Shown: positions 878 to 15,433 of the stretch, piece by piece
Position numbering within the stretch: the first letter of the stretch is position 1
Layout of the letters: each line of letters opens with the position of its first letter
NCBI GenBank assembly: GCA_964592405.1
Contig: CAZQBY010000013.1
Location: 1-21,628, forward strand
DNA length: 21,628 bases
Direction of reading: 5' to 3'
DNA from: an uncultured archaeon
GTDB taxonomy: Archaea; Altiarchaeota; Altiarchaeia; JAFGQM01
Translations under genes and position numbers: made by a program
The notes under the pieces: generated by a model
Databases searched by the model: none
What the model was told of the DNA's origin: nothing
What the model saw: only the letters and a program-made list of their open reading frames with translations

Positions 878-1077
878 GGGCCGGTAGATCAGTCCGGTTA
901 GATCGCCTGCTTTGCAGGAGCCCTTTCTTTCAAAAAGAAAGGTGCGCGAGGTTCGCGAAAGCGAACCTGCGCCCAAGTTCACAAAAGTGAACTTCGGGCT
1001 TCGCCCCAAAGAAAGGAGTGCTGAGGAATGGGTTCCAAATCAGCAGGAGGCCCCGGGTTCAAATCCCGGCCGGTCCA
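878..1077 (+). tRNA. tRNA-Ala(UGC) with intron at 37/38 (exons 878-916 and 1042-1077)
   Basis: Acceptor GGGCCGG/CCGGTCC with the G3:U70 Ala identity pair. D-stem GATC/GATC. Anticodon stem CCTGC/GCAGG with anticodon TGC at 913-915. T-arm CCGGG-TTCAAAT-CCCGG. Discriminator A1077; CCA not encoded. Confidence 0.95.
917..1041 (+). other. 125-nt archaeal tRNA intron with strict bulge-helix-bulge splice motif
   Basis: Central helix TTTG(911-914)/CAAA(1036-1039). 3-nt bulges C-A|G and T-C|A. Outer helix GAGCCC(918-923)/GGGTTC(1030-1035). Splicing restores the 7-nt loop TTTGCAA. Confidence 0.9.
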
Positions 1078-1256
1078 TCTCATTCGCAGCGGCTCGGCAT
1101 CGATGGCCCGGCCTTATGTCAAGACGGTTACTGGGCTGATGAGTCTTAACATCCCGGCCGGTCCACTCATAGGCATAAAGGCAATATCGTGTACCGTCCT
1201 TATGCCAGGAAGCAAAGGCTAAGGAAGTAACTTCCTGTCATCCCGGCCGGTCCACT
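1063..1256 (+). repeat. tRNA-3'-end-anchored tandem array: ATCCCGGCCGGTCCA x3 (1063-1077, 1151-1165, 1240-1254), period 88/89 bp
   Basis: Exact 15-bp copies of the tRNA-Ala 3' end. The intervening segments are diverged homologs of each other, and each folds into a long imperfect hairpin. Confidence 0.9.
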
Positions 1257-10670: not shown

Positions 10671-13196
10671 ATGAAACGGATGCTCGCGCTGGTCGCGCTA
10701 TGTGTGGTTTTGCTGAGTTTGGACGCTTATGCAGACGGCATAATAATCCCCGAGCCGAGGCCTGATTTGCCACGACCGGAGTATCTAGAGGTGAAATACC
10801 ACCATGTGAACATCACAATCAATAACCAGTTTGTTGAGACATATATAGACCAGGTCTTCCACAATCCCAACTACTGGGATATTGAGGGCACATACCTCTT
10901 CCCCCTGCCGCCGGGCGCATCCATACAGAAGTTCTCCATGTATGTGGAGGGTGAAGAGCTCAAGGGTGAGATACTCGAAGCGGATGAGGCGCGCGAGATA
11001 TATGAGGACCTGGTGAGGAAGCTGATAGACCCGGGATTGCTGGAATATGTGGACCGCAACACCTTCAAGGCAAGGGTCTACCCCATCGAGGGCAGGGGCG
11101 ACAAGCGCGTCAAAATGGACTACTCGGAGGTTATATCCTGCGAGAGCGGCGTCTGCGAATACACATATCCTTTGGACATAGAGCGGTTCACCTCGGCGGA
11201 CATGGAGGAAGTCGTTATAAGCGCGGTCGTAAAGTCCAACATCCCGATAAAGAGCGTCTACTCACCGAGCCATGAAATTGAGGTAAGGCGCATAAGCGAC
11301 TACAAGGTTGAGGTAAGCTACGAGGCCGAGCACGTCAGGCCCGACACGGACTTCAAGCTCATATACACCATCTCGGATGATGATATCGGCGTCAACCTGA
11401 TAACCCACAAGGAGGGTGATACAGGCTACTTCCTGTTAATGCTCGCCCCCAAGTTCCAGCTGGACGAGGGCGACGTCATTGAGAAGGATGTCGTGTTCGT
11501 CCTTGACAAATCAGGCTCAATGGCCGGGGAGAAGATAGAGCAAGCCAAGGATGCGCTCAAATTCACGCTCAACAGTTTGAACGAAGGTGATAGATTCGGC
11601 ATTGTTACCTTCAGCACAGGGGTGACCAGCTACAAAGACTCTCTTGAGCCTGCAAGCTCTGCCAACATAGCCGATGCCATAGATTTCGTAGATGAGATAA
11701 AAGCACTTGGCGGGACAGACATACACGGTGCACTCCTGAAAGCTCTGGATATGCTGCCGTCCGACGACCGGCCCAAGATGATAATCTTCCTTACGGACGG
11801 GGAGCCGACCGTGGGAGTAACGGATATAGAAGAGATTTTAAAGGATGTCGCAGATGAGAATGATGGCGCCAGCATATTCGTCTTTGGGGTTGGGTATGAC
11901 GTCAACACGCACCTGCTGGACAAGCTGTCCATCCAGAACCATGGCGTTTCTGAATACGTTGTGGAGGGTGAAAACATAGAGGTCAAGGTCAGCCGGTTCT
12001 ACGAGAAGGTGAGCAACCCCATATTGTCCGACATATCGCTCGACTTCTCAGGCATAAGGGTCATGGAGATGTATCCAAAGGAGCTCCCGGATGTCTTTAA
12101 AGGGACGCAGATACTTGTCTTCGGGCAGTATGAGGGCAGTGGGCAGGCGGAGGTGAGTCTCATGGGCGAGGTGGCGGGCGTGCCAAACATGTTGCGCTAC
12201 AGCCTATACTTCCCTCCCTCAAGGAGGAGCAACGACTTCCTGCCGAGGCTCTGGGCTACAAGAAAGATAGGCTACCTGCTGGATGAAATCCGACTGGAGG
12301 GTGAAGATGAGGAGCTCATAGACGAGATAGTAGAGCTGTCGAAGAGGTATGGGATAGCCACCCCATACACATCATTCCTGATACTTGAGGACGAGCCCAC
12401 GGATGTCTGGCGGAGAGAGCTGCAGGAGAGCCTCGCTCCACAGGCCGGCTTCGAGGCAGTTACGGCCAGTCAGGACATAGGAGCCTACAAGGGTGCAAAC
12501 ACTGCTGGAACGGCTGGGAAGACTATCTATGACACGGAGGGCAGGGCTGTCAGCATACGCTACGTTGGCAAGAAGAGTTTTATTCAGAAGGACGGGTTCA
12601 TGACAGATACGGAGTATGAGGGCGGGACCACACTGAATCTCAAATACGGCAGCAACGCATATTTCAGTGCGCTGGCCATGAACCCCGGGCTTGGACAGTA
12701 CTTTGCAGTCGGCAAGAACGTCATAGTCTGTGTTGGGGGTACCTGTATCAAGGTGGACGAGAACTACGCCGGTACGGAGGACACAATAGGCGAGCTGGAT
12801 TTAGGCGAAGAAGAGGCTGAGTGGCAGTGCGGCACCGACTCAGACTGCGAGCTGAGCTGCGCCTGCACCTGCGGAGAGCCCGGCTCCGTACAGTGTATAA
12901 GGCAGGCCGACTGCCGGGAGGAACAGGGGATAACCGGCTGCAAGTGCATTGAGGGAGTCTGCATCCCGGTCAGAGACCCGAACTGGTCGCCCCCTGATGG
13001 TGGACCCGTCTGCGGCAACGGTGCCTGTGAGAGTGGAGAGAGCGCAACAAGCTGCCCAAAGGACTGTGAGGTCATAGGTAAGCCACCGGCTCAGCAGGAG
13101 GGCGACTTCACGACCCTGCTGATACTGGCAGTGGTCGTAATCGTGCTGGCGACGATATTCGTTTCATTCAGAAAACTGAAACGGGAGAAAAGATGA
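10671..13196 (+). CDS. Secreted, C-terminally anchored VIT + vWA domain protein (inter-alpha-trypsin inhibitor heavy chain-like) with Cys-rich stalk
   Basis: Signal peptide; VIT-like FHNP..IEGTYLFPLP; MIDAS VFVLDKSGSM and FLTDGEPT; RLWA and TPYTSFL; Cys-rich region; C-terminal TM plus basic tail. Confidence 0.9.
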   Translation: MKRMLALVALCVVLLSLDAYADGIIIPEPRPDLPRPEYLEVKYHHVNITINNQFVETYIDQVFHNPNYWDIEGTYLFPLPPGASIQKFSMYVEGEELKGEILEADEAREIYEDLVRKLIDPGLLEYVDRNTFKARVYPIEGRGDKRVKMDYSEVISCESGVCEYTYPLDIERFTSADMEEVVISAVVKSNIPIKSVYSPSHEIEVRRISDYKVEVSYEAEHVRPDTDFKLIYTISDDDIGVNLITHKEGDTGYFLLMLAPKFQLDEGDVIEKDVVFVLDKSGSMAGEKIEQAKDALKFTLNSLNEGDRFGIVTFSTGVTSYKDSLEPASSANIADAIDFVDEIKALGGTDIHGALLKALDMLPSDDRPKMIIFLTDGEPTVGVTDIEEILKDVADENDGASIFVFGVGYDVNTHLLDKLSIQNHGVSEYVVEGENIEVKVSRFYEKVSNPILSDISLDFSGIRVMEMYPKELPDVFKGTQILVFGQYEGSGQAEVSLMGEVAGVPNMLRYSLYFPPSRRSNDFLPRLWATRKIGYLLDEIRLEGEDEELIDEIVELSKRYGIATPYTSFLILEDEPTDVWRRELQESLAPQAGFEAVTASQDIGAYKGANTAGTAGKTIYDTEGRAVSIRYVGKKSFIQKDGFMTDTEYEGGTTLNLKYGSNAYFSALAMNPGLGQYFAVGKNVIVCVGGTCIKVDENYAGTEDTIGELDLGEEEAEWQCGTDSDCELSCACTCGEPGSVQCIRQADCREEQGITGCKCIEGVCIPVRDPNWSPPDGGPVCGNGACESGESATSCPKDCEVIGKPPAQQEGDFTTLLILAVVVIVLATIFVSFRKLKREKR

Positions 13197-15433
13197 TAGA
13201 CAAGAACGAGATTATGGCTCTGGCGGCGATTGCCGCCATCATAGTCGTGCTGGCAATAATGGTCAGCATAGTGCCCCAGGACGAGCTCCTAGGAGGGGGC
13301 GACATAGGCTGGGTGGACGACGGGAAGGTGGACGAGACCTTGAAGAAGTTCGAGTCGCAGGCCGAGCTCAGCTCGTTCATCAAGTACTCGGCCGAGAGCA
13401 GTTATGGCGGTTACGGCGGGAGGGGTGTCATGATGGAGACCACCATGGCCATGGCTGCTGACACAACCATGGGAGCTCCTGCACCGACGGTCGGGAAGGC
13501 ATATGCCGGGGCGGAGGAGTTCTCAACCACCAACATACAGGTGGAGGGCGTTGACGAGGCAGACATTGTCAAGAACGACGGCAAGTACATCTATTTGGTC
13601 AGCGGCAACAAGGTCGTCATACTGGACGCCTATCCGCCGGAGGACGCCAAGATACTCTCGGAGATAGAGTTTGAAGGCGAGTCGCCATTGGAGATTTACA
13701 TAAACGGAGACAGGCTGGTTGTCTTCACGCAGGATTATGATTACGGAGCAGGTAAAATCGGAGTATACCCTTATTATCAGGGCTCTGGAAGCAGGGCAAT
13801 GGTCTATGTCTACGACGTCTCGAACCGGGAAGAGCCCGAGCTGAAGCAGGAAATCGGTGTGAAAGGCGCGTATTTCAATTCGCGCATGATAGGCAACTAT
13901 GTTTACGTCATAGTCAACGAGCCCATTTACTACCGGCCCTGCTACGGCTACTACTACGGCAGTGATGAGGTCAATCCGCTGGAATGCCTCACCAGGGAGA
14001 TAGAGGTTCCCGAGGTGACGGTTGACGGAAAGGCTATGGATGAGGGGTTCCCGGACGTCTACTACTGGGACATACCCGACAATTCATACCGCTTCACGAC
14101 AGTGCTGGCCGTCAACACGCAGACTGACGAGAGCCCGAGCAAGAAGTTCTTCGTCATGGGGGCTGCGCAGGACATGTACGTCTCCATGGACAACATCTAC
14201 GTCACAAGGAGCAGGTGGATGAGCGAGCGGGAGCTCATGGACAGGGTATACGATGAGGTGGTGATACCCAACCTGCCGGAGGAGCTGCAGGATGAGATAG
14301 CGGATATTGAGGCCTCGGACAAGGGCGAATATGCGAAGAAGTTTGAAAAGCTTCTGGTGATAAAGGAGTATATCGCCAATCTGGGCGAGGAGGATGCCCA
14401 AGAGTTCCGGGAGGCGATAAGCGACGCGATGCAGGAAATGCGCGAAGAGTTTGAGAGGATGAGGGAGCAGACAGTGGTCAGCAGGATAGCGATAGACAGA
14501 GGGAAGATAACGCCGAAGGCCACGGGCAGCATTCCGGGAACCGTCCTGAACCAGTTCTCCATGGACGAGTACGGCGGCAACTTCAGGATAGCGACTACTG
14601 TGGGCCATGTCAGCCGCTCCGGAGGCGGCTCCAGCAACAATATCTATGTCCTGAACAGCGACATGGAGATAATCGGCAAGCTGGAAGACCTTGCCCCCGG
14701 CGAGCGCATCTATTCGGCGCGCTTCATGGGCGACCGGTGCTATCTTGTAACCTTCAAGAAGGTGGACCCGCTATTTGTCATAGACCTGTCAGACCCGGAG
14801 AACCCGGGGGTTCTGGGCAAGCTGAAGATACCCGGCTACTCGGACTACCTCCACCCATACGACGAGAACCACCTTATCGGCATAGGTAAGGAGACGGTCG
14901 AAGCAGAGGAGGGAGACTTCACCTGGTACCAAGGCGTGAAGCTGTCGCTGTTTGACGTCACGGACGTTGAGAATCCGAAGGAGCTGGACAAGTACGAGAT
15001 AGGCGACCGGGGGACGGACTCCAACGCCCTGCATGACCACAAGGCGTTCCTGTTCAGCAGATCGAAGAACCTGCTGGTTATTCCGATACTGCTGGCAGAG
15101 ATAGATGAGGAGAAGTACCCAGGCGGCGTCGAGGACAACACCTACGGCGACTACGTCTGGCAGGGCGCATACGTCTTCGATGTGGATCTGGACGGATTCA
15201 GGCTGAGAGGCAGGGTGAGCCACGCTGATGAGAGCGAGTTCGAGAAGAGCGGATATTACTACAGCTCTCCGAACTCGGTCAAGCGCTCGCTCTACATGGA
15301 CGACATCCTCTACACGATATCGGACAGCAAGGTGGTCATGAGCGATCTGAACGTGCCGGCTGAGAAGATAAACGAGGTCGAGCTTCCTTACGATGGAGGG
15401 GGCTACAATTATCCAGAGCCGTTTCTTGTCTAG
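13193..15433 (+). CDS. Membrane-anchored beta-propeller domain protein (Beta_propel / COG4880-like)
   Basis: FSTTNIQVEGVDEADIVKNDGKYIY, LNQFSMDEY, GERIYSARFMGDR, VDPLFVIDLSDP, GKLKIPGYSDYLHP. ATGA overlap with the previous gene. Confidence 0.9.
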   Translation: MIDKNEIMALAAIAAIIVVLAIMVSIVPQDELLGGGDIGWVDDGKVDETLKKFESQAELSSFIKYSAESSYGGYGGRGVMMETTMAMAADTTMGAPAPTVGKAYAGAEEFSTTNIQVEGVDEADIVKNDGKYIYLVSGNKVVILDAYPPEDAKILSEIEFEGESPLEIYINGDRLVVFTQDYDYGAGKIGVYPYYQGSGSRAMVYVYDVSNREEPELKQEIGVKGAYFNSRMIGNYVYVIVNEPIYYRPCYGYYYGSDEVNPLECLTREIEVPEVTVDGKAMDEGFPDVYYWDIPDNSYRFTTVLAVNTQTDESPSKKFFVMGAAQDMYVSMDNIYVTRSRWMSERELMDRVYDEVVIPNLPEELQDEIADIEASDKGEYAKKFEKLLVIKEYIANLGEEDAQEFREAISDAMQEMREEFERMREQTVVSRIAIDRGKITPKATGSIPGTVLNQFSMDEYGGNFRIATTVGHVSRSGGGSSNNIYVLNSDMEIIGKLEDLAPGERIYSARFMGDRCYLVTFKKVDPLFVIDLSDPENPGVLGKLKIPGYSDYLHPYDENHLIGIGKETVEAEEGDFTWYQGVKLSLFDVTDVENPKELDKYEIGDRGTDSNALHDHKAFLFSRSKNLLVIPILLAEIDEEKYPGGVEDNTYGDYVWQGAYVFDVDLDGFRLRGRVSHADESEFEKSGYYYSSPNSVKRSLYMDDILYTISDSKVVMSDLNVPAEKINEVELPYDGGGYNYPEPFLV

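Follow-up and report, generated by a model that had tools for sequence, protein, structure and literature searches.

Tandem hairpin units with tRNA-matched arms in the 3' trailers of tRNA genes in a family of Altiarchaeota

The DNA considered here (the window) is a stretch of 21,628 nucleotides from an uncultured archaeon (GTDB lineage Archaea; Altiarchaeota; Altiarchaeia; JAFGQM01), corresponding to positions 1 to 21,628 of the forward strand of contig CAZQBY010000013.1 in the NCBI GenBank assembly GCA_964592405.1. Directly behind its tRNA-Ala(TGC) gene lie two short hairpin units in tandem, members of a larger set that is found behind tRNA genes in all eight analysed genomes of the archaeon's family. 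Each unit has four parts, namely a trailer linker of about 24 nt, an arm, an exchangeable core hairpin and a fresh copy of the last 13-15 nt of the tRNA, and the arm is antisense to the unit's own tRNA, matching its final 10-12 nt plus one or two trailer bases. In the open-access literature searched, hairpin units of this kind, attached to tRNAs and with arms that match them, were not found described. The units are read as DNA-level repeats rather than as individually required genes. From this perspective, the tentatively favoured explanation is that they may well be a self-renewing, lineage-specific family of palindromic cassettes, subject to birth and death as repeats and tolerated in tRNA 3' trailers because they can be trimmed away.

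Anatomy, distribution and turnover of the units

The window's genome (G000) is a 1.13 Mb assembly in 22 contigs, with 49% GC and 87% completeness, and at least 16 of its 33 predicted tRNA genes bear units. Twelve of the 33 tRNAs called by ARAGORN have their own last 12 nt repeated, with at most one mismatch, within 400 nt downstream; a diverged copy of the tRNA end is present behind four further tRNAs (Phe, an Arg-like one on contig C1, Gly-GCC and Ala-GGC), and for three further ones the unit is truncated or interrupted by a contig end. The arm is antisense to the 3' end of its own tRNA in every unit-bearing case. An antisense match of at least 10/12, two trailer bases included, occurs at +22 to +26 behind 8 of 32 tRNAs, the corresponding controls giving 0/32 (upstream) and 1/32 (reversed). 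The trailers share a common plan, consisting of a pyrimidine-rich linker of about 24 nt, the antisense arm, the stem-loop entry CTTATGYC, CAT and the tRNA-end copy, and each unit ends with the T-stem 3' strand, the acceptor 3' strand and the discriminator of its own tRNA. Unit lengths range from 67 to 103 nt; the His and Gln units measure 67 nt and the Ser-type units have a distinct inner stem. Arrays of four or more units follow Val-TAC, Ser-GCT and His, and the tandem copies behind Val, Ser-GCT and His are identical. Each of the 14 strong matches to a covariance model of the unit has the orientation of the tRNA and abuts, on its 3' side, either a tRNA or a preceding unit, and the cores have no other significant match anywhere in this genome.

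The covariance model, derived from 12 aligned units, contains 19 base pairs and was applied with a threshold of E<=0.001. Among 61 genomes of the phylum, unit matches were obtained in all eight genomes of the window's family (four genera; 4-19 matches each) and in none of the 53 genomes of eight other Altiarchaeota families (57-97% complete; stricter filters). The original prediction, made from the letters of the window, had anticipated homologous units elsewhere, and the eight genomes of the family supply them. In 24 of 27 loci of these genomes the tRNA end called by ARAGORN lies no more than 2 nt from the first unit, and in the remaining three the upstream sequence reads by eye as a tRNA 3' end (one at a contig edge, two with interrupted T loops). 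In all loci the units begin exactly after the discriminator base and lie on the tRNA strand. Units directly behind a tRNA-Ala(GGC) were also found on a metagenome contig (L233), the one stretch with real units among the 80 listed out of at least 120 motif matches, and the viral motif scans (34, 3 and at least 119 stretches) yielded no unit in 34 loci and none in 83 loci (3 plus 80 listed). Tandem hexamer runs resembling GTCTTC/GGTCTT (e.g., GTCTTCAGTCTTG) follow many arrays in relatives (L029, L030, L039, L040, L041, L045). This motif, which resembles GTCTTCAGTCTT, was considered as a tRNA-linked element and rejected, 2 of its 39 matches in the window's genome being near tRNAs.

Covariation was evaluated on 47 model matches from 34 sources, comprising 45 usable units, against 500 shuffles. 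When all stem cells are taken together, 86.9% are paired versus 68.8% in the shuffles and double-sided changes amount to 173 versus 58.7, values that none of the 500 shuffles reaches; control alignments that had been slid are paired at 30-50%. The outer helix is paired at 83.7% versus 64.7%, with 92 versus 31 double-change cells (again, neither is reached in 500 shuffles) and with changes on both sides in 9 of its 10 pairs, while the inner helix is paired at 90.4% versus 73.3%. The figures for these two helices show genuine covariation between arm and tRNA end, and an inner stem that is upheld by AU/GC and UA/AU exchanges. The proposal that such arrays would also follow other tRNAs, with the antisense arm changing along with the tRNA end, is therefore borne out, both by the number of unit-bearing tRNAs in the window's genome and by the pairing of the outer helix.

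The stems also have irregularities at fixed places. Arm positions 3 and 4, which face tRNA nt 71 and 70, are unpaired in 15/46 and 21/46 units, respectively, with pyrimidine-pyrimidine mismatches; inner-stem position 4 is unpaired in 17/46 units, and an internal loop of TT versus CCC is conserved at a fixed position. With two misaligned rows left out, pyrimidine-pyrimidine mismatches number 61 versus 12 purine-purine ones, and G.U pairs number 20 versus 38 A.C on the tRNA strand, so that there is no excess of wobble pairs. A pseudoknot between linker and loop, suggested by CTTAGC in the linkers and GCTAAG in the type-I loops, was rejected: the longest helix averages 4.29 bp for cognate, 4.16 for non-cognate and 4.14 for shuffled combinations, and helices of at least 6 bp occur in 5/45 cognate cases (11%) versus 11% of non-cognate and 7% of shuffled ones. 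Likewise discarded was the idea of the arm as a copy of the 5' acceptor strand, with which the wobble sites (position 6 in Glu; position 3 in Ala and Arg) disagree, few sites being informative.

The units turn over rapidly. The syntenic Ala(TGC)-Lys locus carries two type-I units in the window's genome, one type-II unit plus an extra unit behind tRNA-Lys in the congener G002, and a unit type of its own in G004; unit number and type thus vary among congeners. At tRNA-Arg(TCG), three congeners agree in 33 of the first 40 columns of the alignment, which take in the tRNA-end copy, the linker and the arm, and the cores beyond these columns are unrelated. At least three core types exist, and cores located at different tRNAs and in different genera are 0.78-0.86 identical, their linkers 0.27-0.67. 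The core swap at Arg(TCG), together with the likeness of cores across tRNAs, indicates that linker and arm are local and vertically inherited and that the cores are exchangeable.

Decay is visible as well. Truncated or decayed units are found behind Thr-GGT, Phe and Ala-GGC, and the unit of tRNA-Ala(GGC) is 93% identical to the first unit of the window, its own 3' copy having decayed. Among units whose copy departs from the true tRNA end, the arm is the better match to the tRNA end in 11 cases and to the unit's own copy in 2 (eight rows lacking a usable upstream tRNA end having been removed beforehand), a split that matches the prediction of independent decay of arm and copy. Moreover, perfect 10/10 arms exist for very dissimilar tRNA ends, as in L030 (Glu), L044 (Trp), L048 and L038 (Arg), which points to templating and not to stepwise adaptation. 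Rapid turnover, decay of units and exchange of cores between fixed arms, none of them anticipated in the original prediction, all point to a repeat dynamic acting at the DNA level.

The tRNA-Ala(TGC) locus of the window

All the features of this locus lie on the plus strand. The tRNA-Ala(TGC) gene occupies positions 878-1077, with exon 1 ending at 916, an intron of 125 nt at 917-1041, exon 2 at 1042-1077 and the discriminator A at 1077. These bounds (G1 = 878, A1077) were set by reading, and ARAGORN run with -i300 gives 877-1079 (tgc) with the intron i(41,125), which, once long introns are allowed, sits at the canonical position. Neither ARAGORN with default settings nor Rfam at the gathering threshold detects the gene, the only tRNA called being tRNA-Lys at 1354-1430. 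The exact 15-mer at 1063-1077, composed of the T-loop end, the T-stem 3' strand, the acceptor 3' strand and the discriminator, serves as the reference tRNA 3' end. The last 15 nt of tRNA-Ala have exactly four occurrences in the genome, three in the window and one at the end of tRNA-Ala(GGC) on contig C16, and the reversed pattern used as a control has no match genome-wide.

Unit 1 begins with linker 1 (1078-1103), a pyrimidine-rich native tRNA trailer that is also found behind tRNA-Ala(GGC) on contig C16; the antisense match is 11/12 at +24, and the last two bases of the linker (GA) carry the complementarity of the arm on into the trailer. Arm 1 (1104-1113) is antisense to tRNA nt 64-73 at 9/10 positions, with a C.U mismatch opposite U70. 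Core 1 (1114-1152), of type I, is made of TT, a 10-bp inner stem with one C.A mismatch and a 17-nt loop; it folds as a hairpin and is covered by the covariation of the inner helix. It is followed by the 13-nt tRNA-end copy 1 (1153-1165), identity to the tRNA beginning already at 1151. Unit 2, which the covariance model matches at 1166-1254, consists of linker 2 (1166-1189), of arm 2 (1190-1199), which is antisense to the tRNA end except for two mismatches, of core 2 (1200-1241) and of tRNA-end copy 2 (1242-1254), a direct repeat of the tRNA end; G1189 is able to pair with C1255. Core 2 is again of type I, with TT, an 11-bp inner stem and an 18-nt loop, and both its fold and the inverted repeat 1202-1212 / 1231-1241, detected by a repeat search of the window, delimit the inner stem. 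The 20-nt tRNA end (1058-1077) is repeated at 1146-1165 (90%) and at 1235-1254 (80%), the copies being spaced 88 and 89 nt apart. The next gene, tRNA-Lys(TTT) (1355-1429), has no unit in this genome, and its orthologue in the congener G002 has one (L029). A T-rich, TATA-like stretch, TTTTTTAATAAAG, at 1316-1330, after the array and about 28 nt before tRNA-Lys, is more likely a promoter of tRNA-Lys than a terminator of the array, judging from its sequence.

All the positions and strings on which the original prediction was founded are present in the window, and in the predicted minimum free energy folds both hairpins adopt the form drawn there, with an antisense outer stem, a small pyrimidine internal loop and a compensatory inner stem. 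These folds are modestly better than those of shuffles (z -2.14 for unit 1 and -1.78 for unit 2). In shuffles that leave the last 15 nt unchanged, a fold as good as that of unit 1 is reached by 10 of 1000, and one as good as that of unit 2 by 110 of 1000. Because the fold scores are only modest, the two units of the window would be unconvincing by themselves, and the beyond-chance evidence comes from the family of 45 usable covarying units.

The junction between the tRNA and unit 1 is spanned, with 0 differences, by a contig from an independent public DNA run (X3 record 18, 1048-1118), and that between units 1 and 2 by contigs of three such runs (X1 record 3, X2 record 11 and X3 record 19), one of which may be the window's own source sample. 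Two other contigs, X1-2 and X2-10, show in their linkers the differences that mark the C16 paralogue, the locus from which they probably derive. DNA of these archaea is present in hydrothermal-vent metagenomes, and no RNA run is listed as containing the locus. A one-unit variant in run X3 (joint 1111 to 1198, skipping 86, depth 3.1, side 23) is below the reliability guide and was not used.

The intron of tRNA-Ala(TGC) is itself built of hairpins, and two of them, GTTCGC-GAAA-GCGAAC and GTTCAC-AAAA-GTGAAC, separated by 26 nt, are present again in the tRNA-Trp and tRNA-Thr(GGT) introns; a palindrome search places the pair at C1:69571-69612, C1:77194-77235 and C13:951-992 of the window's genome. 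Eight of the nine palindromes of this kind in the genome fall within tRNA introns or tRNA 3' flanks, and their recurrence points to intron modules common to different tRNAs. Very long introns are present in many tRNA genes (e.g., Trp 204 nt, Ala 125, Thr 121, Glu 97, Gly 94) and are missed by default finders. In the 5' leader of tRNA-Ala, positions 836-845 are perfectly complementary to intron positions 970-979 (an inverted repeat of 10 nt). A different arrangement is seen behind tRNA-Pro(TGG) (C6:7025-7500), where a tandem repeat of about 240 nt contains part of a tRNA, from the T arm to the 3' end, with a two-hairpin insert of about 60 nt in the T loop; a comparable insert at the same position occurs in a tRNA of G007 (L041, C86, upstream of 1501).

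Further along the window the genes are of the housekeeping kind, the ten proteins scanned including SIS, a PLP enzyme, a PurM-like protein, a GMP synthase domain, MscS and VIT-VWA. The closest named relatives of one window protein are in metagenome-assembled genomes (MAGs) of Altiarchaeota, with 81-88% identity. Two big neighbouring open reading frames of 841 and 746 aa lie at 10671-15433, the first with VIT and VWA domains.

Origin and persistence of the units

If the units are repeats of the kind proposed, the repeated tRNA ends would slip or recombine unequally with one another, and new units, as well as tandem growth and loss, would result. Each arm would be templated from the tRNA-end copy across the palindrome, through fold-back or quasi-palindrome template switching, cores would be traded between loci by short-tract conversion, and older units would decay. 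Persistence would be due to the place that the units occupy within the 3' trailer of the tRNA, with the discriminator base on one side and the terminator on the other. There, the spare acceptor 3' strand would be held in the unit's own hairpin and would therefore not compete with the true acceptor stem; furthermore, the unit would re-form an acceptor-like stem with a discriminator, such that RNase Z, and possibly RNase P, could clip units off the pre-tRNA. RNase Z is present in all five unit-rich genomes and RNase P RNA in four of them. Within the arrays, runs of at least five T are found 3 times in 3723 nt (about 6 expected from the background), and such runs lie within 60 nt after the array in 8 of 33 arrays (about 3 expected), a pattern that would weakly support transcription through the arrays; the same analysis of the window's genome by itself is uninformative.

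Several observations weigh against this explanation. No mobility enzyme is consistently present, so that the proposed generating steps would have to be supplied by the general machinery of replication and repair. The cores, and three position-specific irregularities, are kept across four genera and look more like a recognised structure than like junk. Moreover, the complementary strand is predicted to be the more stable one in 36/45 units with RNA parameters and in 38/45 with DNA parameters. A birth-death model of repeats does not explain this asymmetry, which also speaks against plain selection at the RNA level on the tRNA strand and is the one feature that recalls strand-specific sites in single-stranded DNA. 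Part of the tandem stretches are masked as N, and the copy numbers of identical units are uncertain in a short-read MAG. Finally, the MAGs are 57-87% complete and MAGs often lack mobile elements, so that a recombinase could have been left unbinned.

It is possible, if doubtful, that the core hairpins represent a new mobile cassette, or a tRNA-linked RNA gene with unfixed flanks, that would gain an inverted and a direct copy of the last 13-15 nt of the tRNA on arrival; this would amount to structure-directed, target-templated insertion with no recognisable transposase, each tRNA would come to have an acceptor-end hairpin of its own, and the products could double as tRNA-specific acceptor-stem decoys released by RNase Z and RNase P. 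Another possibility, close to the second one of the original prediction and to be held with reserve, is that the units are functional small RNAs, putatively co-transcribed with the tRNA and released by the same enzymes as hairpins that mimic the cognate acceptor end, and that would act as a decoy, a sponge or a substrate for the CCA-adding enzyme, a synthetase, a nuclease or a toxin, or bind a protein through the core loops. The constant start after the discriminator on the tRNA strand, the covariation of both stems with conserved irregularities, the 0.78-0.86 identity of core loops across genera and tRNAs, and the presence of RNase Z and RNase P RNA would all fit this role, for which the tRNA-C/D small RNA (sRNA) precursors of Nanoarchaeum equitans offer a DPANN precedent (PMC3491384). 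On the other hand, selection on an RNA is not suggested by the pairing statistics, with G.U not in excess over A.C (20 vs 38) and the opposite strand folding better; units are lost, replaced and decayed between congeners; the mismatches at 2:71 and 3:70 would destroy acceptor identity elements (Ala units have C3.U70, not G3.U70); and 15 units have no match to any Rfam family at E<=1. Other RNA identities were discarded. CTGATGA in unit 1, considered as part of a hammerhead or C/D box, is not conserved in unit 2 or the C16 copy, and there is no Rfam match; a tRNA pseudogene or cloverleaf is not indicated, the Rfam tRNA model matching 0/15 units at E<=1; as for guide RNAs, nothing significantly complementary to the cores occurs in the rest of the genome, an 18-nt match within a protein-coding frame being taken as chance.

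The original prediction had put forward an integron-like site-specific system, in which mini-cassettes would be inserted at tRNA ends through folded single-stranded att sites; in such a system the outer stem would mimic the duplex of the tRNA-gene end and a recombinase would read the core and the internal loop. The two-stem hairpin with an unpaired spacer and position-specific mismatches, the strand asymmetry of folding, the behaviour of cores as exchangeable cassettes between fixed arms and the identity between copy and target tRNA end, which homology-dependent strand exchange would require, are compatible with it. The enzymes are not. Tyrosine recombinase (PF00589) is found in only one (G003) of five genomes (80-87% complete), with no match in G000, G002, G005 and G007, so the co-occurrence of an integrase with the arrays, which the original prediction proposed to test, is not found in four of five; no integrase is encoded among the 10 window proteins scanned. 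In those four genomes not even a XerA-type recombinase was found, which may reflect incompleteness or real loss. Reverse transcriptase (RVT_1) was found in none of the five unit-rich genomes; Cas1 (PF01867) in none of the eight of the family, on which ground a casposon- or CRISPR-type target duplication was also rejected; a serine recombinase is present in 1/8 and TnpB above the cut-off in 1/8; and Y1_Tnp occurs in 3/5, with none in G003 and G005, which bear 15 and 11 units. A fragment of an IS200/IS605-type Y1 transposase (49 positions, with an in-frame TAG) lies at the start of contig C1 of the window's genome (C1:66-212), full copies being present in G002 and G007. In addition, units of 67-103 nt carry no cargo, no core site is common to all of them, no unit lies away from tRNAs and none was found in the 117 viral loci drawn by unit motifs, so that the integron-like system is judged unlikely.

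Quite unlikely, too, is an origin as neutral scars, that is as att duplications left behind where tRNA-targeting plasmids or viruses had repeatedly integrated and been excised, or as simple tandem duplications like those downstream of Escherichia coli tyrT. Direct repeats of tRNA 3' ends are the classic footprint of integrative elements (PMC9897764, PMC3293823), and many units are indeed decayed. A core hairpin that is conserved in four genera and whose stems covary would not be expected of scars, however, and neither would antisense arms that each fit their own tRNA, for more than 14 different tRNAs, or a fixed spacing of 22-26 nt; the repeats are 67-103 nt apart and not kilobases, the neighbouring genes are housekeeping ones and integrases are not found in four of five genomes. 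The neutral outcome foreseen as the alternative in the original prediction is thus largely refuted by covariation and conserved architecture. A last explanation, highly improbable, takes the last copy as the true tRNA 3' exon and the intervening sequence as an intron removed by the archaeal splicing endonuclease. Long introns are frequent in this lineage, intron modules are common to several tRNAs, and T-loop inserts begin where the repeated segment begins (Pro-TGG repeats, L041). Against this, the first copy already completes a normal tRNA with its acceptor and T stems, inspection of the covariation-supported structure reveals a 2x3 internal loop and no second 3-nt bulge 4 bp away, hence no bulge-helix-bulge, and splicing would leave the product unchanged.

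Significance and comparison with known systems

Mobile elements of archaea classically land in tRNA genes, which are also where introns, split genes and permuted genes originate. For the question of how such disruptions of tRNA genes arise, the family of units described here would provide a natural system, in which modules move among tRNA loci with no obvious enzyme, about half of the tRNA genes in one small-genome family of Altiarchaeota carrying tRNA-templated cassettes with visible gain, loss, tandem growth and core exchange. If transcribed, the units would constitute the first set of tRNA-specific acceptor-stem mimics encoded beside their own tRNAs, and would bear on the recognition of minihelices by RNase P, RNase Z, the CCA-adding enzyme and synthetases. 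From a practical point of view, units and long introns cause tRNA finders to miss genes in these genomes or to set their bounds wrongly.

The attC sites of integrons have conserved inverted core sites (RYYYAAC / GTTRRRY) and fold in a strand-specific way from the bottom strand. The likeness to them is one of form: both are two-stem hairpins of single strands with an unpaired spacer, mismatches and strand asymmetry, and both occur as tandem arrays at a fixed anchor with exchangeable middle parts. The Altiarchaeota units differ in having no integrase, no gene cargo and no shared core, and in using many anchors, one per tRNA, each with a matching stem. The repeats of Escherichia coli tyrT, which lie downstream of the gene, head to tail, each ending in the 3' terminal segment of the tRNA, are known from a single locus, are longer and have no antisense arm or hairpin, whereas units are present here behind more than 14 tRNAs per genome and in four genera.

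The precursors of N. equitans in which a tRNA and a C/D box sRNA are joined as a dicistron are cut by RNase Z (PMC3491384). Both these and the tRNA-small nucleolar RNA genes of plants resemble the units in having a structured element right after the discriminator on the same strand, with RNase Z present. They differ from the units, which lack conserved C/D boxes and any Rfam match, carry the tRNA end both as a direct and as an antisense copy, form arrays and turn over rapidly.

With regard to transposed or shared tRNA introns, which Fujishima et al. in 2010 reportedly described in Thermoproteales, the likeness lies in related modules occurring in different tRNA genes of one genome; the units differ in lying outside the mature tRNA, in duplicating the tRNA end and in lacking a visible bulge-helix-bulge motif.

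A very high density of MITEs (miniature transposable elements with inverted repeats) is reported for Ca. Altiarchaeum (PMC11602168), and repetitive hairpin elements have been reported in sponge mitochondria (PMC2800124). Like MITEs, repetitive extragenic palindromic (REP) elements and the mitochondrial hairpins, the units are short, non-coding, hairpin-forming, multicopy, lineage-specific and subject to birth and death, and they might be processed in the manner of tRNA punctuation. No target-site duplication of the usual kind is seen at the units, and unlike MITEs and REPs they are not dispersed, every copy adjoining a tRNA 3' end, and their terminal inverted repeat is copied from the host tRNA. 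On these sequence features the units would be filed among short palindromic repeat elements, from which strict anchoring at tRNA 3' ends and stems apparently copied from the host tRNA would set them apart.

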